Assembly (NCBI GenBank): GCA_018817165.1
Contig: JAHITY010000114.1
Location: 17,721 to 81,720, forward strand
DNA length: 64,000 nt
DNA from: Candidatus Omnitrophota bacterium
Lineage (GTDB): Bacteria; Omnitrophota; Gorgyraeia; B26-G9
Direction: 5' to 3'
Positions 1 through 58,171 of the stretch are shown piece after piece (the stretch's first letter is position 1; the number at the start of each line of letters is the position of its first letter). The notes under the pieces are model-generated. The model was not told the DNA's origin. It worked only from the letters and a program-made list of their open reading frames with translations, and did no database searches. A program made the translations under genes and the position numbers.

Positions 1-45
1 CAAAATAAAAATCCAAGTTCTTTTCCGGATATTGAACTTAGAACT

Positions 46-2238
46 TTGACAGCTTATACAGACAATACTTATCCGCAGATCCAGAATACTGACAAAAAAA
101 TCAATGGTCGAATTTTTCAAATGCGCAGATTGAAAATTGATAGATTCCAGCCAGGAGTGTATGATTATTTTAACCTGGAGATTAATTTAAGACAAAATCA
201 GCAATCGCAAACCAATGCGGTTCAAGAGTACAAAACAAAGGTACCTTTAAAGTTTATCAAAGAGCAGGTTAGCAATAAGGGGCTGCTTGCGGTAATTAAG
301 AAAATCATTTCATATCTTAATCCCCGAAAACTCAGAGAATATTATTCAGATATAATCGGAGTTATTGATGGAAGCATGGCTTATAAAGGACCGTTTTGCG
401 CGCAAGTAGACCTTACTAATGATTGTAATAATGACTGCATTGGCTGCTGGTGCAATTCACCTTTATTAAAAGATAAGCAGATTAGTGAGCAGGTAAAACA
501 GCAGACATTGCCTTTAGAAGTGGTTAAAAAAACGATAAATCAACTTAAGAGTCTGGGCACAAAGGAGATATATTTTGCCGGAGGCGGAGAGCCGTTTATG
601 CATCCGCATATTATGGAAATTCTGAACCATGTTAAAGCGCTTGGTTTGCGTTGTTATATTAATACAAATTTTACTTTGGTAACTGAAGACATGGTAAAAC
701 AGCTGGTGGATATTGGTGTAGACAATCTAGTTGTCAGTATTTGGGCTGGAACAGCGAAAACATATCATCAAACTCATCCCAATAAATCTGAAGCAATGTT
801 TTATCAGCTAAAAGGAGTGCTTAAATTACTTAATTCGCTTAAGCATAAAAAACCACAGGTAAATGTTTATAATGTGATCTCAAATCTGAATTATAAAGAA
901 CCTGAGCAAATGGTTGATTTTGCTTTAGAATCTGGCTGTGATTCCCTGGAATTTACAGTTATTGATACAATTCCTGATGCGACAGATGCTTTGATGCTCA
1001 GTGATCAACAGAGAAAAGTAGTAATCGAAGCTTGTAATAAAATTAAACAGCGTTTGGAAACAGGGGATTTAAAAAATAAGATTGAGGTTTTACAGTTTGA
1101 GCAGTTTATCCGTCGGGTTGATAATTCTGATGCTAAAATCGCCCAATATGATAATGATATTTTAAACCAAATGCCTTGTTATATGGGCTGGCTGTTTGCC
1201 CGGATTTTGGCTGATGGCAATGTTAATTTTTGTCTAAAAGCGCATCGGATTCCTGTGGGCAATATTTATGCTCATGATTTTCTTCATATCTGGAATAACC
1301 GCAAACAGCAGGAATTTAGAAAGCGTGCAATGTCTGTGCCTAAAAAAGATGTATTTTTCTCCTTTATTGGCAATGACCCGGATGTAAAAGTCGGTTGTTT
1401 TAAAGGTTGTGACGATCTTGCGCGTAATATACATATGCACAAAAAGATCCAATCTTTAACGCGTTTGGAGTATAAATTATTAAGAGTAATTTTATACTGG
1501 ATAAAATTGAAAAATTATTTTAAAGGAAAAAACTTTTCTCAGGCAATAAAAAATAAAATTGTTCAAAGGAAAATACTTGATAAGAAAATCATCAGACAAG
1601 GGAAACTTAAGGCAGTTTATCAGTCTGAGGGCATAAAGCTATATTGGGCTGAGCAGGAGATTACCCAGAGCATTGGCTTGAATACATCAGTGTGTATCTT
1701 TGGGCTATGGTATGACTCGTCTAAAGCAAAGTGGGAAGTGTCTAAACACAATGATCATGAATTAGAACTGAAAAGTACTTGGAATAATATTCCGATTTCT
1801 CAAGTATGGAAAATTAAACTTAATAGCGATTGTTTACTCCAATGGGATATTGCTTTGATAGTTGATTCTAAAATAGAGATAGAGCAGACAAAATCAAGCA
1901 TTATGATTTCACCGCTTTATAAAAAATGGCAAATCAATAAAGAGTCTGGCAAATTCCCCAGTTCAATGAATTGGCAGCAGGCAGAGATCAATAGTACTGA
2001 CGCAAAACAAATTAAAGTTATGTCTGTTAAAACAGGAAACACTGATTTGCCGGAATTATTTTTTGATTTTTCAGAAAACAGTGATCTTGAGTTGAGACCG
2101 CAGATTCAGAACGCGGATAAGCTGATAAATTCTCGGATTATATCAGCACAGAATATAGAAGCAGATAGTGGCAGAATTTTTCTGCCAGGAGATGTGAATA
2201 ATTTTTGTTTAAAACTAAACATAAAAGGTAGTAAATGA
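46..2238 (+). CDS. Large radical SAM/SPASM-domain protein with a ~250-aa Trp-rich C-terminal extension of unknown function. The reading frame is open to the window start, so the 5' end may be truncated.
   Basis: Cx3Cx2C motif CNNDCIGC followed by GGGEPFMHP (SAM-binding); C-terminal Cys-rich SPASM-like region (CYMGW...FCLKAH...VGCFKGCDD); the track start is a TTG; there is no in-frame stop between position 1 and 46; ATGA overlap with the next gene. Confidence 0.7.
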   Translation: MTAYTDNTYPQIQNTDKKINGRIFQMRRLKIDRFQPGVYDYFNLEINLRQNQQSQTNAVQEYKTKVPLKFIKEQVSNKGLLAVIKKIISYLNPRKLREYYSDIIGVIDGSMAYKGPFCAQVDLTNDCNNDCIGCWCNSPLLKDKQISEQVKQQTLPLEVVKKTINQLKSLGTKEIYFAGGGEPFMHPHIMEILNHVKALGLRCYINTNFTLVTEDMVKQLVDIGVDNLVVSIWAGTAKTYHQTHPNKSEAMFYQLKGVLKLLNSLKHKKPQVNVYNVISNLNYKEPEQMVDFALESGCDSLEFTVIDTIPDATDALMLSDQQRKVVIEACNKIKQRLETGDLKNKIEVLQFEQFIRRVDNSDAKIAQYDNDILNQMPCYMGWLFARILADGNVNFCLKAHRIPVGNIYAHDFLHIWNNRKQQEFRKRAMSVPKKDVFFSFIGNDPDVKVGCFKGCDDLARNIHMHKKIQSLTRLEYKLLRVILYWIKLKNYFKGKNFSQAIKNKIVQRKILDKKIIRQGKLKAVYQSEGIKLYWAEQEITQSIGLNTSVCIFGLWYDSSKAKWEVSKHNDHELELKSTWNNIPISQVWKIKLNSDCLLQWDIALIVDSKIEIEQTKSSIMISPLYKKWQINKESGKFPSSMNWQQAEINSTDAKQIKVMSVKTGNTDLPELFFDFSENSDLELRPQIQNADKLINSRIISAQNIEADSGRIFLPGDVNNFCLKLNIKGSK

Positions 2239-3869
2239 GTAAAGTAATTTTAGTTAATTGTCCTCCTTGGGGGGTGGTGATGCCGCCTTTGGGAATTGCT
2301 TATTTGTCAGCATACTTAAAATTAAAAGGTGTTCCGGTAGATATTTTTGATTTAAATCTTGATCTGTATGAGCAGGCTGATTCAGCCCAGCAGTTGTTTT
2401 GGCAATTGGATGAAATAAATCGGATAAAACCCTGTGATATTGCTGAAAATATTTTTAAAGCTTTTGGAAATCGGATTGATGAATTTATTCAGAGTTTATC
2501 TGGATATACGATTATTGGGTTTTCCACAAATAATCTGATCAGTGCTATTTTTGCTGGATTTTTGGCGAAAAAAATCAAAGCCAAATATAAGGATAAAACT
2601 ATAATCCTTGGCGGGCCGGGAATATATCATAGTTGGGATAGAAAGACAGTAGCCAAAGAGAATATAGATTTTTTTATTATTGGTGAAGGCGAAGAGGCTT
2701 TGCTTAAATTTTTAAATGAATTTGAGATCAATCGATCTCCTGATTATTTGTGTTCTAAAGTTCCTGGGCTGCTTTACGCGCAGGAATCGTCAAATGTGGT
2801 TTATCTGCCTTGGCAGCCAGTAAAAGATTTAAACAGTTTAGCTTTTCCTACCTTTGAGGAATTTGATTTAAGTAAATACAATAGTAATAGTAAATATCAT
2901 CCTTTGCCCATGCTGATCAGCCGCGGCTGCATTAATCAATGCAGTTATTGCATTGACTGGTATATTTGTTCTGGTTTTCGCATGCGACGACCAAAGCTGA
3001 TTATTGAGGAAATGAAGTATCTCAAACAAAAATATAATATAAGCCATATTGAGTTTAATGATTTGCTTTGTAACGGCAATTTATATGGTTTGCATAAACT
3101 TTGTCAACAAATGCAGCAGGAAAATTTGAACCTTACTTGGATAAGCTATGCGGCAATAAGAAAAAACATGACTCAGGAACTGCTTAATGATATGAAAAAG
3201 GCAGGATGTAATTCCCTGTGTTATGGTATAGAAAGCGGATCAGATGCGGTTCTTGGCAAAATGAACAAGCATTACAACTCTGCTGATGCTAAGCAAGTAA
3301 TTGAAAAAACATTTAAAGCGGAAATTCAAGTGAGCCTGAATATAATAGTTGGATTTCCCGGAGAAACCGAAGCTGATTTTAAGCAGACAATTGATTTTCT
3401 TAAATCCAATAGTAAATATATTTCTCAAGTAACTAATGTTTCTTCTTTTGTGCTTATGCCTGGTTCTGATGTGGGAATTTATCCACAACGCTTTGGAGTG
3501 AAATTTCTTGATCCGCTCGATCCTGGCAAATGGACTGATGCAAATTGGTTGACTCAGGCAGAACGCAATCAGCGGGTGGGACGGATATGTGACTTGCTCA
3601 AGGAATTAAAGATTAAAAATCTGATTGTAAATTATCAGGATAAAAATGCTAAGGTTTGTAATATTAAAAATGAAATTCCACAGCAAATAACTGATAAGTC
3701 AGATGGAATTATTGATTTATCAGATTTGAAATCAAGAGGGTTCAAAAGAAGAAATAAAATACTTAAATTTGCTGTGCTTGGGATATTGCTTATCGCAAGC
3801 ATTATTATTGATTTTTATTTAAATGTTTTAAAAAAACTGCGGGGCTCAATTATTTTCCCCGGAAACTGA
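2235..3869 (+). CDS. B12-binding domain radical SAM protein (class B) with a C-terminal TM helix.
   Basis: N-terminal Rossmann-like B12-binding pattern (VILVNCPPWG...PPLGIAYLSAYLKLKGVPVDIFD); radical SAM motif SRGCINQCSYC; hydrophobic C-terminal helix. Confidence 0.8.
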   Translation: MSKVILVNCPPWGVVMPPLGIAYLSAYLKLKGVPVDIFDLNLDLYEQADSAQQLFWQLDEINRIKPCDIAENIFKAFGNRIDEFIQSLSGYTIIGFSTNNLISAIFAGFLAKKIKAKYKDKTIILGGPGIYHSWDRKTVAKENIDFFIIGEGEEALLKFLNEFEINRSPDYLCSKVPGLLYAQESSNVVYLPWQPVKDLNSLAFPTFEEFDLSKYNSNSKYHPLPMLISRGCINQCSYCIDWYICSGFRMRRPKLIIEEMKYLKQKYNISHIEFNDLLCNGNLYGLHKLCQQMQQENLNLTWISYAAIRKNMTQELLNDMKKAGCNSLCYGIESGSDAVLGKMNKHYNSADAKQVIEKTFKAEIQVSLNIIVGFPGETEADFKQTIDFLKSNSKYISQVTNVSSFVLMPGSDVGIYPQRFGVKFLDPLDPGKWTDANWLTQAERNQRVGRICDLLKELKIKNLIVNYQDKNAKVCNIKNEIPQQITDKSDGIIDLSDLKSRGFKRRNKILKFAVLGILLIASIIIDFYLNVLKKLRGSIIFPGN

Positions 3870-3891
3870 TTAGAATGCAGTGTATAGCGAA

Positions 3892-4038
3892 TAGTAGGGC
3901 CACGGCGTGACGTGGCCGATACTAATACAGTTATCAAAAATTGTAGGGGCCGGGCTTGCCCCGGCCCGGAATAATGTACAATTATATAAATAGGTGAAAT
4001 TATTAATAAGCGGGCGCAGGCAAGCAGCGCCCCTACTA
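3892..4038. repeat. GC-rich three-hairpin element bounded by the terminal inverted repeats TAGTAGGG...CCCCTACTA. Copy 1 of a family also seen at 52340 and 63312.
   Basis: Hairpins ggccacg-gcgtga-cgtggcc, gggccggg-cttgc-cccggccc and gggcgc-aggcaagca-gcgccc; ends tagtaggg / cccctacta are reverse complements of each other. Confidence 0.6.
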
Positions 4039-4181
4039 TAAAGGGCAGGAATAATTATTTAGGCGGGTTTGAAGCCTGATTTTGATAGGACTGGCAAAAT
4101 CAGAGATTCATCCTCGGAGTCCCGCAGGATGCGGGACGAGAATGAGCCAAAATGATTGATTCCGGACCGCCTTCGATAAAG
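4034..4181 (+). ncRNA. Conserved ~148-bp structured element (copy A). It could be a cis-regulatory leader or small RNA, or a repeat element. A near-identical copy lies at 17740..17886.
   Basis: About 96% identical direct repeat. Internal stem-loops gattttg-N11-caaaatc and ctcggagtcccgca-gga-tgcgggacgag. Both copies lie ~130 bp upstream of a GT1 glycosyltransferase start. Confidence 0.45.
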
Positions 4182-4312
4182 GTTGCATCAGCAGGAAAAT
4201 TTGTGTCAGCGTAAAATTTATCGATCATCTTGAGTATTGAGTAGAGCGTTTAGAGTTTGGAAATAGTAATTAGAAATTAGTAATTTATTTTCTGTTTTAT
4301 AAAGGGATTTTT

Positions 4313-6440: not shown

Positions 6441-8132
6441 ATGTATATATTGGGTGTGTGTGATAGTCAAGATGCGGGAGCCGTGATTATCAACAGTGAA
6501 TCAAATCAAATAACTGCAGTCAATGAAGAACGTTTGAGCCGGATAAAATTGCAGGGAGGTTTTCCTTATTTATCTATTATAGAAGTCTTGCGTTTGAAAA
6601 AAATAAAGCAGGAGCAGATTGATTTAGTAGCTATTGCTTCTGATATGACGCCTTGTTTTATCCTTAGATTATTTTCCAAATCCCATGCTCAGCTTAGAGA
6701 TAATAATAAACAATTCAGTTTTTTATTGTCAGTATATATTTTATATCAGGTTTTAGCCGAAAAACTTATTCTACCTAAGAAAATAGAGTCATTTCTAAGC
6801 CGTATGGTTTTAGGCTATAAATTGAGCAAGCTAGGGATTAATGCTAAAGTAATCACCGTTGATCATCACATTGCGCATGCTTATGCAGCATATGGTATTT
6901 GCGGATTTGATAATGCTTTAATCATTACTATTGATGGTTTGGGTGATGGAGTGTCTTTTAGTGTTAATATAGGTAAGGAGGGGATTATTAAGCCGGTTTT
7001 TAGACAAAGTGCCTTAAATGATATAACACTTTATTATTCCCGATTGACGGAGTTCCTTGGATTTAAGCCGATTCAAGATGAGGGCAAGGTTATGGGTTTA
7101 GCAGCTTATTGCGGGAAATATTCCGCTTTGGATCAAGCAGCAAAGCTTTTGCGAGTAAGCAATGGAAGATTTAAACTAAAAAATCCTTTTGTAAGAAATA
7201 AAAAGATATTTAAGCAGCTAAAAACAATAAGTAAGCAGGAAGTTGCGGCATCTTTTCAAAAACATGCCGAAGATTGTATTGAGCAGATTATTGCTTATTG
7301 GGTTAAGAAAACAAATATCTCAAAAGTAGTGCTTGGCGGCGGGTTCTTTGCCAATATAAAGGTTAATCAGAAAATAGCTAATATTAAGCAAGTTGATAAA
7401 ATATATGTTTGTCCTCATATGGGAGACGGCGGATTAGCCTTGGGTGCTGCATTTTTTGCAAAAAAACAAAAACCATTTAAAGCAAAAGATGTATTTTTCG
7501 GGTCTGAATACACAAATAAGCAGATAAGTGAAGTGCTTGAATCGCAGAAAATTGAATATCAAATAAGTAATTCAATACACAATGAAATTGCTGAATTATT
7601 AAGCAGAGGGAAGATTATTGCCAGATTTAACAAAGCTATGGAATTTGGACCGAGAGCTCTTGGTAATCGTTCGATTATTGCTGCTGCAGTAGATAATAGT
7701 ATTCAGAATTCTTTAAATATTAAACTGGGTAGAGATGATTTTATGCCTTTTGGCCCGAGTATTCTCAGTGAATATAAAGCTAAATGTTGTGAGCAGACTG
7801 ATAAAGCAGCCTATGCAGGGGAATTTATGAATATTAGTTTTAAAGCTACTGATTATTTTAAAAAAAAATGTCCCGGGGCTGTGCATAAAGATGGGACAAC
7901 ACGGCCTCAATTTGTTTCAATGAATTCTAATAATGATTTTTATAATATTCTAAATGAATATAGAAAAATAACAAATATCCCAGCATTATTAAATACTAGT
8001 TTTAATATACACGAAGAGCCTATTGTTTGTAGCCCTAAAGATGCGATAAGAAGTTTTCAGAAAAGCAGAATAGATTACTTGGCAATAGGGGATTTTTTAA
8101 TAAAGAGGAGGGATGATGAAGAAAAACAATAA
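6441..8132 (+). CDS. NodU/CmcH-family carbamoyltransferase.
   Basis: N-terminal ILGV...DAGAVII...NEERLSRIK and VDHHIAHAYAAYGICGFD motifs matching the TobZ/NodU carbamoyltransferase family; ~560 aa. Confidence 0.75.
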   Translation: MYILGVCDSQDAGAVIINSESNQITAVNEERLSRIKLQGGFPYLSIIEVLRLKKIKQEQIDLVAIASDMTPCFILRLFSKSHAQLRDNNKQFSFLLSVYILYQVLAEKLILPKKIESFLSRMVLGYKLSKLGINAKVITVDHHIAHAYAAYGICGFDNALIITIDGLGDGVSFSVNIGKEGIIKPVFRQSALNDITLYYSRLTEFLGFKPIQDEGKVMGLAAYCGKYSALDQAAKLLRVSNGRFKLKNPFVRNKKIFKQLKTISKQEVAASFQKHAEDCIEQIIAYWVKKTNISKVVLGGGFFANIKVNQKIANIKQVDKIYVCPHMGDGGLALGAAFFAKKQKPFKAKDVFFGSEYTNKQISEVLESQKIEYQISNSIHNEIAELLSRGKIIARFNKAMEFGPRALGNRSIIAAAVDNSIQNSLNIKLGRDDFMPFGPSILSEYKAKCCEQTDKAAYAGEFMNISFKATDYFKKKCPGAVHKDGTTRPQFVSMNSNNDFYNILNEYRKITNIPALLNTSFNIHEEPIVCSPKDAIRSFQKSRIDYLAIGDFLIKRRDDEEKQ

Positions 8133-8889
8133 ACTTTTAAGAATTATCCAATGGTTTTTTGAAGAGGATGTAAGTGAAGAATCGGTTAGCAATGATGATA
8201 CTATTGAAATAGGATTGATTCAGATAGTCTTAATTATCCTGATAACTGCAATATTTTCAGTCTGGATATTTTTTGAGCCGATAAAGGGATTCTTCAATCG
8301 TCCTCAGCTTTCAACCAGTGAATATATTGAAAAGCATATTGAGAAGAATTATTTTATTATTAAAAATCCGCTGAAAAATAGCGATTTTAGCCAAGGACTA
8401 GAACACTGGGCAAGCTCTGACTGCGGCTTGCTTTTTCCTGATTCAAAAAGCGTTGCTAGTATTGATAAGCATGATTATCATTCTGCTCCTAGCAGTCTAA
8501 AAATAAAATGTATTTCTCCGGCAAACCGATATCATTACTCAAAAAATGAGAAAAATAAGGTATTAGATAATCCTTATAGCTTTAAGCAAACAGAATGCTG
8601 GATGGGGATTCTGCCGGGAAGAGAGATAAATGCTAGTATTTGGTATAAAGGAGATATTGTAAAATTTACAATAAATTATATTAATAAATCAGGGGAATGG
8701 AATAATTTAGACAGTGTTTTTGGCTCAGTTACAAACCAATGGTCACAGCTTAAGATAAATAAAAAAGTTCCTTTAGATGCAAGAGCAATAATGATTGAAA
8801 TCACTGTAAATAAGGCTGAGAACAGCCCCTTACCGGTAGTGTGGATAGATGACATTAACTTAAAAACTGCCAATTTTGAAGAAAAATAA
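8113..8889 (+). CDS. N-terminally membrane-anchored protein with a CBM4/9-like (carbohydrate-binding-module-like) domain. Paralog of 22363..23139.
   Basis: Single N-terminal TM helix; NSDFSQGLEHW start pattern resembling CBM_4_9 domains; clear paralogy with 22363..23139 (HSAP.SL+I+...WYKG...DFTI...). Confidence 0.4.
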   Translation: MMKKNNKLLRIIQWFFEEDVSEESVSNDDTIEIGLIQIVLIILITAIFSVWIFFEPIKGFFNRPQLSTSEYIEKHIEKNYFIIKNPLKNSDFSQGLEHWASSDCGLLFPDSKSVASIDKHDYHSAPSSLKIKCISPANRYHYSKNEKNKVLDNPYSFKQTECWMGILPGREINASIWYKGDIVKFTINYINKSGEWNNLDSVFGSVTNQWSQLKINKKVPLDARAIMIEITVNKAENSPLPVVWIDDINLKTANFEEK

Positions 8890-10517
8890 TGAATTTAAAA
8901 AAAATAAAATATATATCTTTAGGTTTATTTGCTTGTTTAGTTATTTTTCATATTGCAAACAATCTCTTTTTTTTAGCAAGAAATCCTTTGCCTGAGGGAA
9001 AGGATAGTTATGCTCATATAACCGCGTTTTCTAATTTTAAACAGATTATAGAAAACATTCAAAATAATCCTTTTTTTAGAAGTGAAAAAAGTTTGGTTTA
9101 CAATCTTGTATTTGTAGTTATTGATTACCCGCCATTGTTTTACATGAGTGCTTATTTGATAAATCTTCTATTAGGAAGCTTTCTGCTCAATGCTGTTTTA
9201 TTGACCAATACTTTTTATATGATTATTTTACTGCTCAGTGTTTATTTTATTGCCAATAGAATAAACCCAATAGCTGCTATTATTAGTGCTTTTGTATGTA
9301 GTATGTATCCTATTGTGTTTATAGCGTCTCGTCATTTCAGCCTTGAACTTGCTATTGCATCGATTGCGGCTTTAAGTGTTTTATTATTAATTAAAACAGA
9401 TTGTTTTTTAGATAGAAAAAACTCATTTTATTTAGGGGTTTGTTTAGGGTTAGGAATGCTTATAAAGCAGACATTTATAATTTATGTAGGCGGACCTTTA
9501 ATTTTCTATGTTTGGACAAGCTTAATTGCCGAACAACCAGTTTCGGCTAAGAATAAGAAAAAAGTTAATATAACTCTTTGTTTGCTGATAGGGGTTCTTA
9601 TTAGTTTAATATTTTACTATAATAAGGCAGTTTATTTTAATATTTTAAACAGAGCTGGGTTTATTGGTGCAGTAAATAGTGCTAATTTATTTTCTTTAGA
9701 GCATATTACGTATTATTTTCGTATATTGCCTCAGACTATTGGTTATTTTTTCTTATTGGTTCTGGTTGGTTGTTTATTTTATTTAAGAAATATAAAAGCT
9801 GAAATTAGAACAGTTTTAGGTTTATGGTTATTAGTTCCGCTTGTTTTTTTCACATTCGTGAAACTTAAATATGGTGAATATACAATTGCTTATTTACCGG
9901 CATTGAGTTTAATCAGCGGAATAGTAATATCACAGATAAGTAAAAAGACTATCCGTGTTTTAGTAATTGCTAGTATGATCTTGATAGGGGGCCTTAATTA
10001 TTATTTACTTTCTTTTAATATTGTTAGCAATTTTTATTCGACGTATTATTTACCTGTTCCTGATGTTGAATTAGCTTATTCAGAAACTACAATTAAAACA
10101 CCAGATAAACTTTTAGAAGATATTGCCTTTAGTAATTCAAAAATTGGAATTTTTTATGATACAGATCCTAATACTTTAATTTTTCCATCATATTTCATTA
10201 GGTCTGTGGGTATTAATCCTAAAAAAAACGCACAAATAGTTGAGTTTTATTTTTCTCCGGACATATTTTTTCATGTTTTGGATGACTTTGATATAATGTT
10301 TTTTATTACGCACTCCGAAGAATCATGGATAACAGAACAAAGCTTTAATCAGTTAATCTGTGAAATAAATGATAAACAAATGAATCTATTGCAAATTAAA
10401 CAGGCTGATATAATAAGGCTTATTAATTTTGTTGGTAAGTTTGCAAAACCCGATATGATAATTTTTGACAAGCCAAATAAGCAGGAAAAAATATATATTT
10501 ACAAAAGGAATAAATAA
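8889..10517 (+). CDS. Multi-pass membrane protein, GT-C superfamily glycosyltransferase-like (ArnT/PMT-like).
   Basis: At least 10 predicted hydrophobic helices in the N-terminal two thirds and a soluble C-terminal domain; start codon overlaps the stop of 8113..8889. Confidence 0.5.
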   Translation: MNLKKIKYISLGLFACLVIFHIANNLFFLARNPLPEGKDSYAHITAFSNFKQIIENIQNNPFFRSEKSLVYNLVFVVIDYPPLFYMSAYLINLLLGSFLLNAVLLTNTFYMIILLLSVYFIANRINPIAAIISAFVCSMYPIVFIASRHFSLELAIASIAALSVLLLIKTDCFLDRKNSFYLGVCLGLGMLIKQTFIIYVGGPLIFYVWTSLIAEQPVSAKNKKKVNITLCLLIGVLISLIFYYNKAVYFNILNRAGFIGAVNSANLFSLEHITYYFRILPQTIGYFFLLVLVGCLFYLRNIKAEIRTVLGLWLLVPLVFFTFVKLKYGEYTIAYLPALSLISGIVISQISKKTIRVLVIASMILIGGLNYYLLSFNIVSNFYSTYYLPVPDVELAYSETTIKTPDKLLEDIAFSNSKIGIFYDTDPNTLIFPSYFIRSVGINPKKNAQIVEFYFSPDIFFHVLDDFDIMFFITHSEESWITEQSFNQLICEINDKQMNLLQIKQADIIRLINFVGKFAKPDMIIFDKPNKQEKIYIYKRNK

Positions 10518-11579
10518 ATGCTGCGCAGTATGTGTTCACAATTAAATAATTTAATTTCTTTTCGTAAACTTTTTTCCTTTAGACAAGTTATGTCTGGGGT
10601 GAGATATTTTCCGGCTACAGTAAATTTTTTGATAACTAATAAGTGTAATCTAAATTGTAGTATTTGCTCTGCTCATGGAATGCTTGATAATAGCCAGCAG
10701 CTCTCGGCTAAGGAGATTGTGGGATTTATTAAAAAAATTTCCAGATATAAACCAGCTATTTTTTTTGGGGGAGGAGAGCCTTTTATTCGGAAAGATATTT
10801 TTGAAATTCTTGCTGCAACTAAAAAAAATGGTTTAAAGTACGGCATTGTTACAAATGGAACAATGCTTGATGAGCATAATATAAAAAGATTATTTGATTT
10901 TGCGCCTGAAATAATAATTTTCTCAGTACATGGCGATGAGATAAGTCATGATGCTAAAACAGGGAAAAAGGGGGCATTTGTAGCTTTATATAAAGCAATT
11001 AAACTTGCAGTTAAACATAAAAAGAAAACAGATATACTGCTTAATGCAGTTATAACTCAAGATAATTATTTAGATCTGGAAAAAATAGTAGTGCTGGGAA
11101 AAGAATTGGGTGTAAATAGGGTAAGGTTTGAGAATCTTATTTTTCTTTCTGAGCTGGAATATGCGCAACATTTAGCAGGGTGTGTAGGTGTTTTAAAAGA
11201 AAAACAAGCTGAAATGACTACTTATATTAAAGATATCAATTGTCCAAAAATTGGTCCTGATATGCAAAAAGAGGTTTTACGTTTAAAACAAAAGTATGGT
11301 AGTTTTGTGATATTTAAGCCTTATATGACTGATCATGAACGATCAAGATGGTTTGAACAGGGGTTTAAGTTTAATCGAAAGTGTATGTTTGTTAGGCATT
11401 CAGTATTTATAAGACCAAATGGAGATATTATTCCTTGTCAGTTTTTTTCTAATTATAAATTAGGCAATATTAAAACAGATGATCTTTCTCGTGTTTGGCA
11501 GGAGGAGAAGCGCAAAAAATTCACTAAAATCTTAAACAAGGAAATTTTACCTGGATGCATGAGGTGTTGTAAATTATGA
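10518..11579 (+). CDS. Radical SAM/SPASM-domain protein.
   Basis: TNKCNLNCSICSAHG (Cx3Cx2C), GGGEPFIRKD, C-terminal Cys-rich SPASM/twitch region (CPKIG...CMFVRH...IPCQFF...LPGCMRCC). Confidence 0.75.
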   Translation: MLRSMCSQLNNLISFRKLFSFRQVMSGVRYFPATVNFLITNKCNLNCSICSAHGMLDNSQQLSAKEIVGFIKKISRYKPAIFFGGGEPFIRKDIFEILAATKKNGLKYGIVTNGTMLDEHNIKRLFDFAPEIIIFSVHGDEISHDAKTGKKGAFVALYKAIKLAVKHKKKTDILLNAVITQDNYLDLEKIVVLGKELGVNRVRFENLIFLSELEYAQHLAGCVGVLKEKQAEMTTYIKDINCPKIGPDMQKEVLRLKQKYGSFVIFKPYMTDHERSRWFEQGFKFNRKCMFVRHSVFIRPNGDIIPCQFFSNYKLGNIKTDDLSRVWQEEKRKKFTKILNKEILPGCMRCCKL

Positions 11580-12133
11580 GAATTATTTTAGACAAATGTT
11601 ATGATATTATAAAGAAGTTTGCATTAAAAAATATTAAACTAAAAGATGATTCATACGTTTTAGATATAGGATGCGGTTTAAAGGGTAATTTCTGGGGATT
11701 TAAGCCAAAAGCTTATTTTGGTTTGGATAATAATCCTAAAATCACAGAAAAAAACACTAAAAATAATAATGGAAATTATAAATTATATGATGTTTGTCAA
11801 GGTTTGCCGTTTGCCAATAAGTCATTTGATTATGTTATTTCTGTAAGTTTTTTTCATCATCTTAGCGATGAGCAGGCAAAGCAGCTTATTATTCAGATCA
11901 AAAGGACATTAAAAGCAAATGGCAGAGCGATTATGGTTGATGGAGTTTTTCCACAATCAAAATCGAATATTATTGGATACTTATTAAGATTTTTTGATAG
12001 GGGCAGGTATGTGCGTAAGGCTAGTGACTTTGAGGCATTGTTTGTAGATGAATTTAATATTGAAGAAAAATATGGTTTTACTGAGAAAATTTTTGCTTAT
12101 ACTGCTTTACTGCTGAGGCCTAAAAATGATTAA
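11576..12133 (+). CDS. Class I SAM-dependent methyltransferase (small).
   Basis: Motif I VLDIGCGLKGNF and acidic motif II region GLDNNPK; 185 aa; ATGA overlap with the upstream gene. Confidence 0.55.
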   Translation: MRIILDKCYDIIKKFALKNIKLKDDSYVLDIGCGLKGNFWGFKPKAYFGLDNNPKITEKNTKNNNGNYKLYDVCQGLPFANKSFDYVISVSFFHHLSDEQAKQLIIQIKRTLKANGRAIMVDGVFPQSKSNIIGYLLRFFDRGRYVRKASDFEALFVDEFNIEEKYGFTEKIFAYTALLLRPKND

Positions 12134-13532
12134 ATATAATTCAAAATATCTTAACCAGAATCAAATAATCAAATTTATTTTTTATGCTATATTATTTTTA
12201 GGCACTTTTATTCGCTTATTTGTTCTTCTTAATTCAGACAATTTTCATGGTATTGCTGCGGGAAAAGTTGTTTGTGCTCAGAGTTTAATTAAACATCCTA
12301 ATTATCTTGAATCCTGGATTATTCCGGCGCATGGCCCCATACATCTTTATCTTATTGCTTTTGTTTGTAAACTGTTTAATGACCCTATTTTTGCTCCGCG
12401 ATTAATTAGTTTGTTTGCCGGAGTGGGTTTTATTGTGGTTTACTATAATTTTATTAAAAATGCTTTTGATCAGAAAATTGCATTGCTCAGCAGCTTTATG
12501 ATTGCATTTTTTCCTTTGCATATTGTTCATAGTGTACTCTCAACAGCTGAGGCTAGTTTTTTATTCTTGCTCTGCTGTGGACTTTTTTTTATGGAACAGT
12601 ATTTAACTAATCAAAAAGATAGATATCTAATTTATTCCGCTATATTCATTAGTATGGCTAGTATGTGTAGGTTTGAAGGAGGGCTTTTTATATTATTTGT
12701 AAGTTTATTCCTGATTAAACAGTATAAAAAAATATTTATGTTTATTGGTATTGCCTCAATATTACCTTTATTGTGGATGTTTTTTAATTATCAATATTCC
12801 GGAAGTTTTTTGCTCTTTCTTTCGGCGAGTGATTCGATTGTGCACACTGAATTTGAATACCTTCGCAGTTTAGGAGAGAATATTACATTTTTTAGAAAAT
12901 TATTTTATTGGCCAAGTCAATTATTAGCTTATTTCGGATGGCCCATATTTTTAATCGGTTTGTTTGGTTTGATGAAAATTGGATATAAAAAGAATAAAAG
13001 AATATTGTTTCTATTTTTAATGATAATTATTTTTTTTATGTTTAAAACACTGAAGGAGGAATTAGCCATGCAGCCGCGTTACGGGCTTAGTTTAGCGATT
13101 CTTTTTATTCCTTTTTTTTCTTTGGCTTTTGTGGAGATATTAAGAAAAGTAAATTCCAAAAGAAGAGCAGTGGTTTTATTAATTTTGATAATTTATGTTT
13201 TGCTAAGAGGAACTTATTTGACCGCTGTATGTATTCCGAAGACTCCGGATTGGCTGGTTTATACCGGGGCGTTCTTGCATGATAATCTTGAAGGTGATAA
13301 TGCTGTTTATATTGATTCCGAAGAGGATAATTATAAAGATCCTTTAAAATTAGAAATAAATACAGATATTGATAGGTTTATTGGTAAAAACCATTTTTTT
13401 CGGCATCTGGAATTGATGGACCCTTTGGGGCGAAAACGTTTGAAATATGTAGTTTTAATATCTAAAAGAAAAATGCAAAATCTAAAACAAGTGTTTAAGG
13501 CAGGGGACTGTAAAGTATATGAAGTTGAATAA
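12126..13532 (+). CDS. GT-C family membrane glycosyltransferase-like protein (ArnT/PMT-like). Tandem paralog of 13519..15036.
   Basis: Polytopic membrane protein; conserved blocks shared with 13519 (PAHGPIHLYLIA / PVHPPGHILFVI; ASMCRFEGG / ASMCRYEGL; MQPRYGLSL / LQPRYGITL). Confidence 0.55.
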   Translation: MIKYNSKYLNQNQIIKFIFYAILFLGTFIRLFVLLNSDNFHGIAAGKVVCAQSLIKHPNYLESWIIPAHGPIHLYLIAFVCKLFNDPIFAPRLISLFAGVGFIVVYYNFIKNAFDQKIALLSSFMIAFFPLHIVHSVLSTAEASFLFLLCCGLFFMEQYLTNQKDRYLIYSAIFISMASMCRFEGGLFILFVSLFLIKQYKKIFMFIGIASILPLLWMFFNYQYSGSFLLFLSASDSIVHTEFEYLRSLGENITFFRKLFYWPSQLLAYFGWPIFLIGLFGLMKIGYKKNKRILFLFLMIIIFFMFKTLKEELAMQPRYGLSLAILFIPFFSLAFVEILRKVNSKRRAVVLLILIIYVLLRGTYLTAVCIPKTPDWLVYTGAFLHDNLEGDNAVYIDSEEDNYKDPLKLEINTDIDRFIGKNHFFRHLELMDPLGRKRLKYVVLISKRKMQNLKQVFKAGDCKVYEVE

Positions 13533-15036
13533 TAATTCAGATCAGACATTAAATTCAATATTATCTAAGCATAAGGAATATTTATTAGTCGGATTAATTT
13601 TATTATTGGCTTTTATTATTCGTATGGGGATTTTGCTTCATACTGTTGATTTCCATGGGATATCAAATGGGAGGATACTGGAAGCGCAAATGATTTTAAA
13701 TGACCCTTTAAATCTTAAATTATGGGTGCCAGTACATCCGCCGGGTCATATCCTGTTTGTCATAATCGGGATAAAACTATTTGGGTCTTTTTTTGCCATT
13801 TCTAGAATTATCAGTCTTGGCTTTGGAATGATGACAATATTAATTTCTTATTTATATTTAAAACAAGTGTTTAATAAGCAAATCGCACTTTTTTCTATTT
13901 TAGCTATTAGCTTATATTCAGCGCATATTGTATATAGTATTATCGGGACATCAGAGACAATGTTCCATTTCTTTTTATTCCTTAGTCTTTATCTTTATGA
14001 ACAGTTCAAACGGAAAAGTAATTTATCTTTATTGTATCTGTTTGGTCTGAGTGTTGGGTTTGCCAGTATGTGTCGTTACGAGGGATTGCTGCTTATTCCA
14101 TTTTATCTTTTTTTTCTGAGAAAGAGCAAGATAAATATAATGGGCTTTATATCTTTTGCTTTATTATTTCCGTTGGCCTGGATGTTAGTAAATTATTTAG
14201 CTTTTGGTAGTCCTATCGAATTCTTAGCAAGTAATAACTTTATAGTGCCTCAGCAGATTAATTGGATCAGAGACAATGGATTTAATATAGATTTTATTTA
14301 TAAGTTTTTATTTTGGCCAAAGGCGATGATTTCCACATTAGGAATAGCTGTTTTTGTTTTTGGTTGGCTAGGACTTATTTATGCTCAATTAAATCGCCAG
14401 GCCAATGTCTTGGGAGGTTTGTTTATAGTATTATTTGCAATTTTCGTGATTAATACTTTGAGAGAAATGCTTTATTTGCAACCGCGTTATGGGATAACCT
14501 TAGGGCTTATGCTGATACCGTTTAGTGTATATTGTTTTATGAAAGTAATTGAGAAAATCGATTCGAGAATTCCCCGATGGACTGTATTAATTCTATTGTG
14601 GACAATGATTATCCCTATTGGAAGTCAAGTTTTAGGAAGTTCATTGTTTGCTCCGGAATTCGCTAAAAATACAGCTTTTTATTTGAAAGAAAATCGAAAT
14701 TTGGGATCAAATATTATGATCGACCATTGTGGAGATGAAAAGTTTAGAGAACCGATAAAGGTTTTAAGTAGAATTGATCCGATCTATTTTAGCTTAATGC
14801 CTGTAATGATAGATGAGAATAATGATTATGTAATTGATCAAGAAAAGTTTTTTAAAATGATTGAAAACAATAATATAGAAACATTAGTGTATTCACCTTA
14901 TGGTGATTTAGCTGGTATTTTAAAACTAAATATTGAAAATATTCCACAGCAAAGACGGAATTTTTTATTTACACTTAAACATAAAAATGCACCGTATTAT
15001 ATTTATGATATTAAGAAAGTTAAAAATGATAAATAA
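13519..15036 (+). CDS. GT-C family membrane glycosyltransferase-like protein. Tandem paralog of 12126..13532.
   Basis: See 12126..13532; 14-nt overlap with the upstream gene. Confidence 0.55.
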   Translation: MKLNNNSDQTLNSILSKHKEYLLVGLILLLAFIIRMGILLHTVDFHGISNGRILEAQMILNDPLNLKLWVPVHPPGHILFVIIGIKLFGSFFAISRIISLGFGMMTILISYLYLKQVFNKQIALFSILAISLYSAHIVYSIIGTSETMFHFFLFLSLYLYEQFKRKSNLSLLYLFGLSVGFASMCRYEGLLLIPFYLFFLRKSKINIMGFISFALLFPLAWMLVNYLAFGSPIEFLASNNFIVPQQINWIRDNGFNIDFIYKFLFWPKAMISTLGIAVFVFGWLGLIYAQLNRQANVLGGLFIVLFAIFVINTLREMLYLQPRYGITLGLMLIPFSVYCFMKVIEKIDSRIPRWTVLILLWTMIIPIGSQVLGSSLFAPEFAKNTAFYLKENRNLGSNIMIDHCGDEKFREPIKVLSRIDPIYFSLMPVMIDENNDYVIDQEKFFKMIENNNIETLVYSPYGDLAGILKLNIENIPQQRRNFLFTLKHKNAPYYIYDIKKVKNDK

Positions 15037-16276
15037 AATCTGCAGGGGAACGATTAATTTTACAAGCCCAATGATGATAAATTTCCTGGGGAATTTGGCT
15101 ATAAGCCGTAAGGCAGGTAATGGTCTAATTTTGGATTTTCAAAATCAGTTTGCCGACTATATTAATATTGATCATGCTATTGCTGTTTCTTGTGCAAAGA
15201 CAGCATTGAGTTTGGCATTGCAGGCTTTAGGAGCTAAAGCTGATGATCAGATTATTGTGCCTAGTTATACAGTGACAGAGGTAATTGATGTTATTATAGC
15301 TCAAGGGCTTAAGCCTGTTTTTATTGATATAAGTTTGTGCGATGGTAATATGATTCCTGAATTAATTGAACAAGAAATTACTAAAAGCACAAAATTTATT
15401 TTAATGACACATATGCATGGCAATCCATGTGATATAGATTCTATAATTATGCTGGCTGATAAGCATGGTATTGCGGTGATTGAAGATGCTGCTCAGGCAT
15501 GCGGGGCAGAGTATAAAGATAAAAAAATAGGCTGCTTTGGTAAGATTGCTTATTTTAGCTTTAATATGTTTAAAAATATTAATACATTAGGCGGATCAAT
15601 GCTGGTTACTAATGATTTAAAACTTGCTGATGAAATAAAAAAAATAAGCAGTCACTTTAAGCCAATTTCTAAAATAGAACTGATGAAAAGATTTTTTAAG
15701 GCAATGATCCTTGCTTCTGTTACAAAACCGCCTATATTTCCTTTATTGGTTTATCCTGTTTTAAAATTAATGGGAGTACAGAAGCATAAAAGTATAGATA
15801 AAAAGCTCAAAGTTAAATTATTGAGCAGAAGTAAATTAAAAAAAATTGATAGATTGTTTTCACCAGCACAAGCAGGATTAGGTTTATTACAGCTTAAAAA
15901 ATTGGATAAATTAAATCAGGATAAAATTAATAATGCATTGGTTTTAAATGAAAAGTTATCAACAGTCAAAGATATTGTAATCTGTAAATCTCAAACAGGG
16001 ATTAAGTGTATTTATTTAAACTATGTAATTATGGTTAAAAACCGCCAAGGTCTGATTGATTTCTTATTTGATAAGGGAATAGATATAAGCCCCGGATTTG
16101 TGCAGGCATGCGCTTATATTAGAGAATTTGAACCATTTGCCGCTGATTGTCCGAATAGTTTGGCTCTTGAGCAGGGTAATCTATATTTGCCTATATATCA
16201 TCCACTAAACAGTAAACATATGATTAAAATCGCAGCATTAATCGGGAAATATTATGAGCCGAAAACTAGAACTTAA
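15026..16276 (+). CDS. DegT/DnrJ/EryC1/StrS-family PLP-dependent sugar aminotransferase. Start moved to the ATG at 15026.
   Basis: DHAIAVSCAKTALSLAL..DDQIIVPSYTV...GIAVIEDAAQACGAEY...FSFNMFKNINTLGGSMLVTN (Lys-containing PLP region). The ATG at 15026 overlaps the upstream stop (ATGATAA arrangement), and the 14933 start in the track would overlap the upstream gene by ~100 nt. Confidence 0.75.
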   Translation: MINKICRGTINFTSPMMINFLGNLAISRKAGNGLILDFQNQFADYINIDHAIAVSCAKTALSLALQALGAKADDQIIVPSYTVTEVIDVIIAQGLKPVFIDISLCDGNMIPELIEQEITKSTKFILMTHMHGNPCDIDSIIMLADKHGIAVIEDAAQACGAEYKDKKIGCFGKIAYFSFNMFKNINTLGGSMLVTNDLKLADEIKKISSHFKPISKIELMKRFFKAMILASVTKPPIFPLLVYPVLKLMGVQKHKSIDKKLKVKLLSRSKLKKIDRLFSPAQAGLGLLQLKKLDKLNQDKINNALVLNEKLSTVKDIVICKSQTGIKCIYLNYVIMVKNRQGLIDFLFDKGIDISPGFVQACAYIREFEPFAADCPNSLALEQGNLYLPIYHPLNSKHMIKIAALIGKYYEPKTRT

Positions 16277-17678: not shown

Positions 17679-17739
17679 GGCTCAAGGATGAAAAGACGAA
17701 AAAGTAGCGGACACAAGGTTGCAAGCTAAAAGCGATAAA

Positions 17740-17886
17740 CTATAAAGGGCAGGAATAATTATTTAGGCGGGTTTGAAGCCTGATTTTGGTAGGACTGGCA
17801 AAATCAGAGATTCATCCTCGGAGTCCCGCACGATGCGGGACGAGAATGAGCCAAAATGATTGATTCCTGACAGCCTTCGATAAAGT
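17740..17886 (+). ncRNA. Copy B of the conserved ~148-bp structured element (see 4034..4181).
   Basis: Near-identical to 4034..4181; located 129 bp upstream of the GT1 gene at 18015. Confidence 0.45.
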
Positions 17887-20761: not shown

Positions 20762-22273
20762 ATGAATTTTTTAAAAAAACATTACATATTTATCAGTTTA
20801 ATCGGGATTTTTCTATTATATATAATTACAGATATTATTATTCTGAATGTTAAAGGAGATTTTCTTCTTTATCAGGAAGCTATAAAAATGGGTGTTTGTT
20901 CTCATTTTTATGAAATATTATCTCAAAGACAATTTTCCCCTTCACCTTACATATATCCGCCTATTTATTTCCTTGTATCGAGTTTTTTATGTGTTATTGC
21001 TGGGCGGTTTAGCTATATAACTTGTGTTTACGCGAATTTTATATATTTAGCCATTTTTTTGAGTTCCTTTTTTCTTTTGGCGAGAAAAATTATAAAAAAT
21101 AATAGTGTGGCATTGCTGGCTGTGTATATATTGTTTATTTTTAATTACGATATCTCGATTTATTCAAGATATTATTCGATGGAGTTTGCCGTAGGAGCAT
21201 TTGTTTGCTTGAGTTTATACTTTTTAATATGCACGGATAATTTTACTAACTTCAAGCGCAGTTTTTTATTTGGGCTTGCTTTTGGGCTAAGCATGTTGAT
21301 TAAGTGGACAGCGTTTATTTATATTTTACCGCCTCTATTGGTTTATATTTGGAATGCACTGGCGGCAGCTCGATCTTCTAAATCAGGATTTAAAACTGTA
21401 TTAATCAATATTGTTGTTTCCTTTTGTATATTCTTAGCTTTGTTTTTATATTGGGTATTGACTTCCCTTGACTTGAATAGGATGTATAACCTTTATTGTA
21501 TTGCAATTACAAAGGAAGCTCAAATATCGGGATTATCTACATATATTGCAGTTTCTTTTACTGCTCTTATGGAATACATTCTTTTTACTAAATTCTTTTT
21601 GCAGGGCAGGTACTTAATTGATTTTTTAAAGGGCAGATTTAGATTTAAAAAATTTCTAATATTTTGGTTATTAGGTCCAATACTTATTTTGTCTTTTGCT
21701 GCTGGAATAACTCGCTCGCGTTATATGATCCCAGTCTTACCGGCACTAGCTTTAATGAGTGCATTGGCTTTTAATAATATCAAGGAGCAAAGGGCGAAGA
21801 GAAATGCTCTTTATTATTTTTTGATTGGAGGCGCATTAATGTTCACGCTAACTTCTTTTTGGGGGAACTATGCTGACGCTGAATATAATCAAAAAGTTCA
21901 TTCAATAAAAGATATGCTTAAAACTATGGAAGATAAGGTGGTAGCCAAAGAAAAAATCCATGTTCTTTACCTGTATACCGATTCTTCACCTAACTTTGAT
22001 TATTTGGTAAAATTGTTCAAGTATTTTTTGGCGCATAATAATTTTAGTAATAGCGAACTTACGATTTCACCTGATGAATTTCTCAGTATAAATATTGATA
22101 GAGCAATAGCGCAGTCAGAATATATACTAATTGTTGATAAAGATCCGCGGGAATTGTTAAAAAAAATCAGCCAATATAATTTAACTTTAGTCTCCAGCAT
22201 AAAGTTAAAAAATGATAATATTGTGGCGATTTTACTGGAGAATCCTTTAGTCGGAGGCGCTAAGATAGACTAA
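20762..22273 (+). CDS. GT-C family polytopic membrane glycosyltransferase-like protein.
   Basis: Many hydrophobic helices over the first ~360 aa, then a soluble C-terminal domain; same gene-neighbourhood logic as 8889..10517 (next to a CBM-like anchor protein). Confidence 0.5.
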   Translation: MNFLKKHYIFISLIGIFLLYIITDIIILNVKGDFLLYQEAIKMGVCSHFYEILSQRQFSPSPYIYPPIYFLVSSFLCVIAGRFSYITCVYANFIYLAIFLSSFFLLARKIIKNNSVALLAVYILFIFNYDISIYSRYYSMEFAVGAFVCLSLYFLICTDNFTNFKRSFLFGLAFGLSMLIKWTAFIYILPPLLVYIWNALAAARSSKSGFKTVLINIVVSFCIFLALFLYWVLTSLDLNRMYNLYCIAITKEAQISGLSTYIAVSFTALMEYILFTKFFLQGRYLIDFLKGRFRFKKFLIFWLLGPILILSFAAGITRSRYMIPVLPALALMSALAFNNIKEQRAKRNALYYFLIGGALMFTLTSFWGNYADAEYNQKVHSIKDMLKTMEDKVVAKEKIHVLYLYTDSSPNFDYLVKLFKYFLAHNNFSNSELTISPDEFLSINIDRAIAQSEYILIVDKDPRELLKKISQYNLTLVSSIKLKNDNIVAILLENPLVGGAKID

Positions 22274-22362: not shown

Positions 22363-23139
22363 ATGAAAAAGATTAGTGCTAAAAAAATCCTAAAGCTGTT
22401 TTTTGAGGAAGAAAAACCTCAGGATAGTAAAGAAACCAGTAATGAAACAAATGAAGTGAAAATTTTGCACTGGCTATTGATTATCGCGATTAGTATATTT
22501 ACTTTGTTTTGGATTATTTATTGTTTTTTTGCTGTTTTTTTAAAATCACCGATATATAATAGCCAAAGTGGTATTAACTCTAAAATCGAGAGAGTTGATT
22601 GGTCAAAGGGTAATGTTTTAAAAAATGGCGATTTTTCTGAAAAATTAAGACATTGGGTTACTTCCGATGGCGGGCAGACATTTAAAGATTCAAAAAGTAA
22701 AGTAAGTCTAGAGGAAGATGATGTTCATTCAGCCCCATATAGTCTGAGGATTAGATCACTCTATCCGACTAATCGATTGCATTATACTAAAAATATGGAG
22801 CAGTATATTATTGGTAATCCTTATGATTTTAAAGAAACCGAACATTGGCTCGGGGTCGAGCCTAGTTCAAAAATCGAGGCATCTTGTTGGTATAAAGGTA
22901 GCGTGATTGACTTTACAATCATTGGTTTGGCTCAAAAAGGCGAATGGATAAATCTGGCAAAAATATCCGGAGAGAGAACTCGGATATGGAAACAATTAAA
23001 AATAGACATAGATATACCGGAAAAAGTAAGAGCTATTTCTGTATTGTTTGTAATTAACCGCGCGCAGGGAAGTCCTTTGCCGGATGTTTTAATCGATGAT
23101 GTAGCGGTATCGATTGTATCTTCGAAAGAGTACATTTAA
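22363..23139 (+). CDS. Membrane-anchored CBM4/9-like domain protein. Paralog of 8113..8889.
   Basis: N-terminal TM helix, NGDFSEKLRHW motif, and conserved blocks shared with 8113..8889. Confidence 0.4.
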   Translation: MKKISAKKILKLFFEEEKPQDSKETSNETNEVKILHWLLIIAISIFTLFWIIYCFFAVFLKSPIYNSQSGINSKIERVDWSKGNVLKNGDFSEKLRHWVTSDGGQTFKDSKSKVSLEEDDVHSAPYSLRIRSLYPTNRLHYTKNMEQYIIGNPYDFKETEHWLGVEPSSKIEASCWYKGSVIDFTIIGLAQKGEWINLAKISGERTRIWKQLKIDIDIPEKVRAISVLFVINRAQGSPLPDVLIDDVAVSIVSSKEYI

Positions 23140-42090: not shown

Positions 42091-42094
42091 GTAT

Positions 42095-53148: not shown

Positions 53149-53170
53149 ACATAAACAAGAAGAAAAACAG

Positions 53171-54058: not shown

Positions 54059-54085
54059 TTGTTTTTCCATAAAAGGGATTTGCTA

Positions 54086-54460: not shown

Positions 54461-54524
54461 TTTTTTCTGCTTAATAGTTTAAACTTTAATTTAACATTCA
54501 TCAAAGAAGGATCAATCAACTAAC

Positions 54525-56246: not shown

Positions 56247-56286
56247 CTGAAAACTGAATACAGAGACCGGAAAAACAGCGGGCAAA

Positions 56287-56407: not shown

Positions 56408-56444
56408 GTGACATTGTGTCATTGTAATATAATGGAGGAGTATT

Positions 56445-58118: not shown

Positions 58119-58171
58119 TTAGAGTAGCAATACGCACGACGTGATACTCAATACTAAATAGGGATTAATTA

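Follow-up and report, generated by a model that had tools for sequence, protein, structure and literature searches.

A two-enzyme radical SAM fusion of Omnitrophota that carries two copies of an undescribed, putatively glycan-binding domain

Radical S-adenosylmethionine (SAM) enzymes with sugar substrates have been described chiefly in small-molecule antibiotic pathways, and Omnitrophota is a phylum noted for very long proteins. Here we analyze a 64,000-nucleotide (nt) stretch of a Candidatus Omnitrophota genome (contig JAHITY010000114.1, positions 17,721 to 81,720; hereafter, the window), which opens within a gene for a 1401-amino acid (aa) protein that combines two radical SAM enzymes with two copies of a domain denoted W. 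The nearest solved relatives of the two enzymes by sequence are AprD4, the apramycin diol-dehydratase, and BlsE, the cytosylglucuronate decarboxylase; these, like DesII and BtrN, which are similar by fold, have small-molecule or nucleotide-linked sugar substrates and no binding module, whereas the protein analyzed here consists of two fused enzymes, each with a putative polymer-binding domain. Another described system to which the protein is linked, through its relatives, is the polysaccharide exporter ATPase Wzt, in which the domain that follows the nucleotide-binding domain is a carbohydrate-binding domain that reads the capped O-antigen terminus and forms dimers by strand exchange (PMC9445017).

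Frame 1 of the plus strand is open from base 1 of the window to the TGA at 2236-2238. A public contig (L001; JGI 3300014656|Ga0180007_10002503), reached via the complete downstream protein (window 2235-3869), matches the window with 100% identity (its bases 7767-11924 to window 1-4158) and extends it upstream; an exact-match search of the GTDB species representatives with the first bases of the window gave no match. In this contig, the open reading frame (ORF) starts with an ATG at L001:5799, 1968 nt upstream of the window and preceded by a purine-rich stretch, so that window 1-2238 encodes the C-terminal 745 aa of the 1401-aa product. An earlier, sequence-only reading of the window, which had noticed the frame running off the edge and proposed a longer protein starting upstream, was right on both counts. 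The complete protein consists of the following parts (aa of the 1401-aa protein, from the N-terminus):

aa 40-144: B12-binding domain (PF02310)
CX3CX2C motif at aa 216-223: class-B radical SAM core
between the class-B core and W copy 1: hydrophobic/basic linker
aa 505-723: W domain copy 1
aa ~756-1140: SPASM-type radical SAM unit
between the SPASM unit and W copy 2: long helix
aa 1180-1401: W domain copy 2

In the window, the same gene and its downstream neighbor are laid out as follows, all on the plus strand:

window 1..198, +: tail (last 66 residues) of W copy 1, by profile and BLASTP; the whole copy is in L001
window 199..411, +: junction of the fusion, with the helical extension at the N-terminus of the second radical SAM unit
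window 412..924, +: radical SAM core (Pfam PF04055)
window 1177..1410, +: abridged SPASM/twitch-like auxiliary Fe-S region (Pfam PF13186, four Cys)
window 1462..1572, +: linker helix (aa 488-524), long, basic and amphipathic, with a hinge of low confidence in the AlphaFold2 model
window 1576..2232, +: W domain copy 2 (window aa 526-744), by profile, AlphaFold2 and Foldseek
window 2235..3869, +: downstream B12-binding radical SAM gene, 544 aa, the ATG of which overlaps the stop codon of the fusion (ATGA)

The similarity between the two ends of the window frame, described in the sequence-only reading as a ~45-aa motif repeated at both termini, is real (window aa 10-64 against the C-terminal tail, aa ~695-742: 38% identity over 58 columns, BLASTP pairwise E=2e-9) but the repeating unit is a ~215-aa domain, the first 150 residues of whose first copy are encoded upstream of the window. 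The W profile matches window aa 6-66 over profile positions 157-219 (E=4e-11) and window aa 526-744 over positions 3-219 (E=1.2e-80). Copy 1 lies in the middle of the protein and only seemed terminal because the window edge cuts it. The C-terminal domain contains 8 Trp in 222 aa (3.6%), compared with 2.36% in the whole protein.

The architecture of the protein is conserved in other genomes. Three metagenome-assembled genomes (MAGs) of Omnitrophota from GTDB (L004, 79% identity; L007, 78%; L005, 60%) retain both the fusion and the order of five genes:

genes 1 and 2: a radical SAM gene, then a second radical SAM gene
gene 3: Wx3-SPASM, 1188-1211 aa
gene 4: B12rSAM-W-SPASM-W (B12-binding radical SAM, W, SPASM-type radical SAM, W), 1401-1411 aa
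gene 5: B12 radical SAM gene, 544-571 aa

Two database proteins, P0001 and P0122, have the same architecture as the fusion. In a more distant MAG (L006, 50% identity), B12rSAM-W (721 aa) and the SPASM enzyme (462 aa) are encoded by separate, overlapping genes, and in an Aminicenantes genome, the genes for the B12 and SPASM enzymes are adjacent and lack the W domains. Furthermore, the segment that follows the junction (...ISYLNPRKLREYYSDIIGVIDGSMAYKGP, window 199..411, window aa ~70-130) aligns with the N-termini of stand-alone homologs of ~430-460 aa, such as P0056 and P0038, and is modeled as helices (residues 2-30 of the AlphaFold2 model) in the N-terminal extension of the second unit. Because of this match and of the separate halves in L006, the 1401-aa protein is taken to be a natural fusion, as shown by comparison of sequences, of two complete enzyme-plus-W units that were formerly adjacent genes. 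The sequence-only reading had suggested that an upstream paralog with the same tail was fused or frameshifted into the gene: a W-tailed unit is indeed fused, but its enzyme is a B12-binding, class B one rather than a SPASM paralog. That the long frame is an artefact of sequencing or assembly, in which a lost stop codon or a frameshift joined two genes, would be compatible with the separate genes in L006 and with the coverage of the junction in this exact strain by only one independent assembly (L001), but given the uninterrupted 1401-1411-aa ORF in the three species-level MAGs (60-79% identity), P0001 and P0122, we consider this exceedingly improbable and reject a frameshift or misassembly.

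Fusion of radical SAM units is found elsewhere in the phylum. Omnitrophota encode multi-radical-SAM proteins of about 1150-1300 aa, which similarly concatenate units and have a SPASM-type core with 44-50% identity to that of the window protein; P0046, for example, has the order W-B12-SPASM. Two of these (P0003 and P0008), as well as about 10 further Omnitrophota matches (about 1280-1300 aa), contain three SPASM-type units per chain and no W domain, whereas the window protein alternates enzyme and W, and pairs a B12-type with a SPASM-type unit.

The assignment of the window protein as a radical SAM/SPASM enzyme in the sequence-only reading is borne out by Pfam, which finds both domains. PF04055 (Radical_SAM) matches window aa 138-308 with 65.6 bits (cut-off, 29.5; E=7.9e-18). 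The Cys of the CX3CX2C cluster motif, at window aa 142/146/149 (nt 424-447), are kept in 89% of 200 homologous domains, and the core is modeled by AlphaFold2 with a predicted local distance difference test score (pLDDT) of >90; the motif, the Pfam match and the model all place the unit in the radical SAM superfamily. PF13186 (SPASM) matches window aa 393-441 (E=5.8e-9; 36.5 bits, cut-off 21.5) over the first 53 of its 67 profile positions. The seven-Cys SPASM motif (CX9-15GX4C ... CX2CX5CX3C ... C), which goes with two auxiliary [4Fe-4S] clusters, is absent from the unit; only four conserved Cys follow the core (aa 393, 411, 466 and 470; C-x17-C ... C-x3-C; 83-90% conserved), so that this is an abridged, twitch-like SPASM region with probably one auxiliary cluster. 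The twitch radical SAM family NF033640 matches the unit at E=3e-18, under its cut-off, and the NCBIfam matches are all far under theirs, the best being TIGR04317 (116 bits against 380).

The upstream half of the protein starts with a B12-type Rossmann domain (PF02310, aa 40-144, 41.2 bits against a cut-off of 32.1), which is followed by a radical SAM core; by domain architecture, this half is a predicted class B (B12-binding) enzyme, and use of cobalamin is predicted. AprD4 is its nearest solved relative by sequence (E=1.5e-20); AprD4 itself is reported not to use cobalamin. For the SPASM half, this place is taken by BlsE (E=4e-6; TM-score normalized by target length, TMt, 0.72), and the twitch-like auxiliary region with four Cys is a further feature in common with the sugar-modifying enzymes, although the window protein scores far below the cut-offs of these families. 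The structural neighbors of the model of the SPASM unit are SuiB, SkfB, BlsE, DesII, PqqE, anSME, viperin, MoaA and BtrN, the first three being the nearest to the core. The model of window aa 94-745 has a pLDDT of 85 and a predicted TM-score (pTM) of 0.67. The linker helix before W copy 2 (window aa 488-524) corresponds to model residues 395-431, with pLDDT <50 at residues 418-433, and this low-confidence hinge in a long helix suggests a flexible tether.

A hydrophobic, Arg/Lys-rich helix precedes both W domains (aa 473-497, within L001:5799-7300, and window 1438-1572, respectively). Hydropathy averaged over 19 residues (KD19) peaks at 1.83 within aa 475-493 of the full protein, and helices equivalent to both are present in P0001. 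These helices could be in-plane membrane anchors that hold the enzyme at the membrane surface; because they are rich in Arg and Lys, an amphipathic nature is more likely than that of transmembrane (TM) anchors.

The W domain could not be assigned to any described family, as the sequence-only reading had anticipated for what it called a W-rich extension. The domain has no match in Pfam at E<=10, in NCBIfam at E<=0.1 or, by profile, in the Protein Data Bank (PDB) at E<=10, the lone exception in these library searches being an SrpI-like match at the chance level (E=0.23). Literature searches turned up no description of the W domain or of fusions of radical SAM enzymes with carbohydrate-binding modules in these pathways. 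HMMER, run exhaustively over 1.84 billion cluster representatives (clusters at 50% identity), yields 483 W proteins at E<=1e-3, of which 332 are found at E<=1e-10, mostly with 2-5 matched stretches each; searches of word-indexed proteins find one protein when queried with a single W domain and six when queried with the W alignment. All members that bear a source name come from Candidatus Omnitrophota, and the existing annotations are ‘radical SAM protein', ‘ABC transporter ATP-binding protein', ‘glycosyltransferase family 39 protein' or ‘hypothetical'. W is an undescribed all-beta domain family of ~215 aa, so far known only from Omnitrophota. The gene upstream of the fusion (L001:2219-5770, 1183 aa) encodes three W copies followed by a radical SAM/SPASM unit, and the five copies in these two genes, which have invariant Trp, Tyr, Gly and Pro positions in common, are 26-29% identical to copy 2 (E=1e-14 to 1e-30).

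The AlphaFold2 model of the W domain, built from a 24-sequence alignment, is all-beta and confident (pLDDT 93.3, pTM 0.87). Foldseek gives 58 matches to it in the PDB at E<=1e-3, led by the putative aldose 1-epimerase 3nre (E=7.4e-8; TM-score normalized by query length, TMq, 0.65), and including the Flavonifractor GalNase (FpGalNase, TMq 0.67-0.68; 9awt, TMq 0.68), the supersandwich domains of glycoside hydrolase (GH) families GH36, GH2 and GH63, of OpgG/OpgD and of the heparinase HepC, the P1 domain of YidC and the minor capsid protein of PBCV-1. The predicted fold of W is accordingly the galactose-mutarotase-like beta-supersandwich, shared with aldose 1-epimerase, GH2/GH36/GH63, OpgG/OpgD, HepC and YidC P1 (E down to 7e-8, TMq 0.55-0.68). 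The classical Wzt carbohydrate-binding domain is instead a jelly-roll, and it does not occur among the 50 Foldseek matches listed for W. The likeness is confined to structure, W being only 6-12% identical to these domains, with no family-level sequence match. W is also set apart by its predicted cytoplasmic location and by having Fe-S radical enzymes and an ABC ATPase as its partners, not glycoside hydrolases or lyases.

The top structural match to an epimerase raises the question whether W itself is catalytic, that is, mutarotase- or epimerase-like or otherwise glycan-processing, which would make the protein tri- or tetra-functional. The conserved positions over 416 W instances correspond to window aa T555, G559, W570, S573, W578, Q601, W603, Y640, W643, G650, F652 and P684, with several Trp of the C-terminal domain near-invariant, whereas no His, Glu or Asp is conserved in 70% or more of the instances, so that, by this test of residue conservation, the catalytic His or Glu of the mutarotase-like enzymes has no conserved counterpart. 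Such a pattern speaks against catalysis of the mutarotase type and is in keeping with a role in binding or in structure. Sequence searches find no match to any epimerase family, and arrays of 2-5 diverged copies typify binding modules rather than enzymes. A catalytic W domain, therefore, seems very improbable, and the mutarotase version of this idea is rejected on the residue conservation.

The proteins in which W occurs tie the domain to glycan export and synthesis. Among the 175 W-containing proteins on hand, a set that is partly biased toward radical SAM enzymes by the first search, the main architectures are as follows:

ABC nucleotide-binding domain + Wx2-5: 70 proteins, the commonest W host
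glycosyltransferase of the GT-C class (PMT_2) + Wx1-4: 11 proteins
W with B12 and/or SPASM radical SAM domains: about 45 proteins
ABC-Wx5-radical SAM/SPASM: 1 protein (P0129, 1856 aa)

The single protein of the last kind (RKY36779.1, from the Omnitrophota MAG DRP78) provides a ‘Rosetta-stone' link between an exporter and a tailoring enzyme. The W-fused GT-C proteins are predicted to have 8-10 TM helices by a crude hydropathy and positive-inside count, the predictions being unstable. The ABC domain of the ABC-W proteins is nearest to Wzt of Aquifex aeolicus (8dku, 7k2t, 6amx; E~1e-69), followed by TarH/TagH and mycobacterial RfbE, and its NCBIfam matches are teichoic-acid and galactan exporter families. 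The genes for ABC-W proteins come directly after an ABC-2 (Wzm-like) permease gene, in glycan clusters, and directly before genes for B12 radical SAM enzymes, SPASM radical SAM enzymes and glycosyltransferases, including a WecA/MraY-type initiating transferase.

Compared with the Wzt carbohydrate-binding domain (Wzt_C; E. coli O9a and Aquifex aeolicus WzmWzt), W in these relatives has the same position, directly C-terminal to a Wzt/TagH-type nucleotide-binding domain encoded beside Wzm (P0128, L012, L013 and L014). However, neither the W domain nor the ABC-W proteins match Wzt_C in Pfam, the phmmer match of P0128 to Aquifex Wzt ends at residue 252 of 404, before the carbohydrate-binding domain, W is a supersandwich of ~215 aa compared with a jelly-roll of ~150 aa, W comes in 2-5 tandem copies, and W is also fused to radical SAM and GT-C proteins, which is not described for the classical domain. 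In the window protein, unlike these ABC-W relatives, the W domains follow radical SAM domains. What is new here is the W family, its restriction, so far, to Omnitrophota, the tandem replacement of the Wzt carbohydrate-binding domain and the fusion to radical SAM enzymes; the fold of W is already known, and the catalytic parts are unexceptional representatives of large superfamilies.

The gene for the fusion protein lies in a glycan island (window 1-52342) that encodes glycosyltransferases of families GT4, GT2 and GT1, five GT-C proteins of the PMT_2 type, a DegT aminotransferase, an NAD epimerase, a carbamoyltransferase, AsnB, a methyltransferase, a DUF362 protein, a GDSL esterase, a Wzy_C/TPR protein and 14 radical SAM proteins. 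The 14 radical SAM genes, at least eight of which encode B12-binding domains, are spread over window 1-48926 with glycosyltransferase genes interleaved, and three more are found in the 7.7 kb upstream (L001:1-7766), which brings the ~57 kb to at least 17 radical SAM genes, with 18 or more radical SAM domains.

Pairs of B12 and SPASM radical SAM enzymes are typical of pathways for ribosomally synthesized and post-translationally modified peptides (RiPPs), so it has to be considered that the product of the cluster is a RiPP, or else a modified lipid, and that W recognizes a peptide or a lipid. The best NCBIfam match of a neighboring gene is a RiPP C-methyltransferase subfamily (TIGR03975, far under the cut-off), SuiB, SkfB and PqqE are among the closest structural neighbors, and there are weak matches to the lipid radical SAM enzymes Tes and a ladderane-associated B12 protein. 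Nevertheless, every NCBIfam match is far under its cut-off, the non-catalytic parts contain no RiPP recognition element (RRE/PqqD) or other Pfam domain at E<=10, and the extension is modeled as a beta-supersandwich, not as a winged helix. With the surrounding genes being overwhelmingly glycan-related, and with W genes adjoining Wzm/Wzt exporters and an initiating glycosyltransferase, we give a peptide or lipid product little credence.

Taken together, the fold, the host proteins and the gene context of W point to a cytoplasmic, bifunctional B12rSAM-W-SPASM-W enzyme in which W is a putative non-catalytic glycan-binding module, a reading that we regard as rather probable. Each W domain, mounted on a flexible helical tether, would bind a glycan and thereby keep the radical SAM unit beside it attached to a lipid-linked polymer on the cytoplasmic side of the membrane, presenting sugar residues to the neighboring active site for radical tailoring. 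The B12 unit might perform, for instance, C-methylation of the presented sugar, and the SPASM/twitch unit, for instance, oxidation, epimerization, decarboxylation or dehydration. The substrate is likely to be an exported polymer because W is also fused to the Wzt-type ATPase: the arrays of 2-5 W copies after this ATPase in relatives would occupy the place of the classical Wzt carbohydrate-binding domain, so that exporter and tailoring enzymes would read the same polymer via the same module. The fusion of two enzyme-plus-W units derives from adjacent genes. The broader proposition that Omnitrophota have evolved a cytoplasmic glycan reader of their own, used by exporter, GT-C and radical SAM proteins, with radical chemistry such as C-methylation, epimerization or deoxygenation performed directly on lipid-linked polysaccharide, is a tentative one, which we hold with more doubt than belief.

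Several observations weigh against a glycan-binding tailoring enzyme. The conserved Trp of W may pack the core of the domain instead of forming a sugar platform, and the fold is found also in proteins that do not bind sugars, namely, YidC P1 and the PBCV-1 minor capsid protein. Enzymes that modify peptides (SuiB, SkfB, PqqE and anSME) appear beside the sugar enzymes among the structural neighbors of the SPASM core, so that the catalytic domain does not settle the class of substrate. Finally, neither the 64-kb window nor the 7.7 kb upstream of it encodes a Wzm/Wzt transporter, and therefore, the link to an exporter comes from relatives only.

The guess of the sequence-only reading that the extension is a substrate-binding or docking module agrees with the fold and the other host proteins of W, its role being putative, and the second half of that guess is the main rival of glycan binding. 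W could be a protein-protein docking or scaffolding module that, by binding other W domains or a common partner, builds a membrane-associated glycan assembly line. The spread of W, often in tandem, over the transporter, transferases and tailoring enzymes of one pathway would be accounted for in this way, and P0129 already joins ABC, Wx5 and radical SAM in one polypeptide; strand-exchange dimers of the classical Wzt domains (PMC9445017) and the non-sugar roles of the W-type fold in YidC P1 and the viral capsid protein can be cited as precedents. However, most proteins with the supersandwich fold bind carbohydrates, the position after the Wzt nucleotide-binding domain is classically that of a carbohydrate reader, and identity of just 26-29% between W copies suits diversified ligand sites better than a single conserved interface. 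Docking is, in our assessment, unlikely, albeit worth keeping in mind.

Should W indeed bind glycans, this would establish a new principle, the radical tailoring of a polysaccharide under guidance from a glycan-binding module attached to the enzyme, and tailoring on a lipid-linked polymer instead of on nucleotide-sugar precursors would be a mode so far undescribed. The surface glycan encoded by the ~57-kb island, with its at least 17 radical SAM genes, would then be one that radical chemistry has modified heavily. The analysis also delineates a domain family of considerable size (483 representatives), so far missed in annotation, which explains several unusually long Omnitrophota proteins annotated as ‘radical SAM', ‘ABC transporter ATP-binding' or ‘GT39'. 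The isolated W domain, being small and confidently predicted, is experimentally tractable.

Some additional features of the locus are worth recording. The 544-aa radical SAM gene is followed by a mosaic of short GC-rich hairpin repeats (window 3870-4312) in a genome that otherwise has 30-38% GC, and near-identical copies (96-97%) lie in other intergenic gaps (window 17739-17885; L001:887-1000 and 2064-2174). An Rfam scan of the whole window found no family, the hairpin repeats included. Because the Logan contig L002 diverges from the window exactly within these repeats, after base 3923, they may be break points of recombination or assembly (REP/MITE-like elements, or terminators).

The last gene of the island encodes a Wzy_C (O-antigen ligase/polymerase-like) protein that has C-terminal TPR repeats (window 50669-52342), and straight after it comes the cell-division/cell-wall (dcw) cluster (window 53090-63317: mraW, ftsI, murE, murF, mraY and murD). 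Within the island, four ORFs of 195-279 aa have no Pfam family (window 8113-8889, 22363-23139, 27744-28331 and 41251-42090). The ORF of the DegT-type aminotransferase (window 14933-16276, with a TTG at 14933) overlaps the PMT_2 gene at 13519-15036 by ~100 nt, and its true start is probably downstream of this TTG. Two proteins with about nine predicted TM helices each and no Pfam match (window 20762-22273, 503 aa, and 42071-43921, 616 aa) are candidates for the polymerase, the flippase or a novel GT-C of the pathway.

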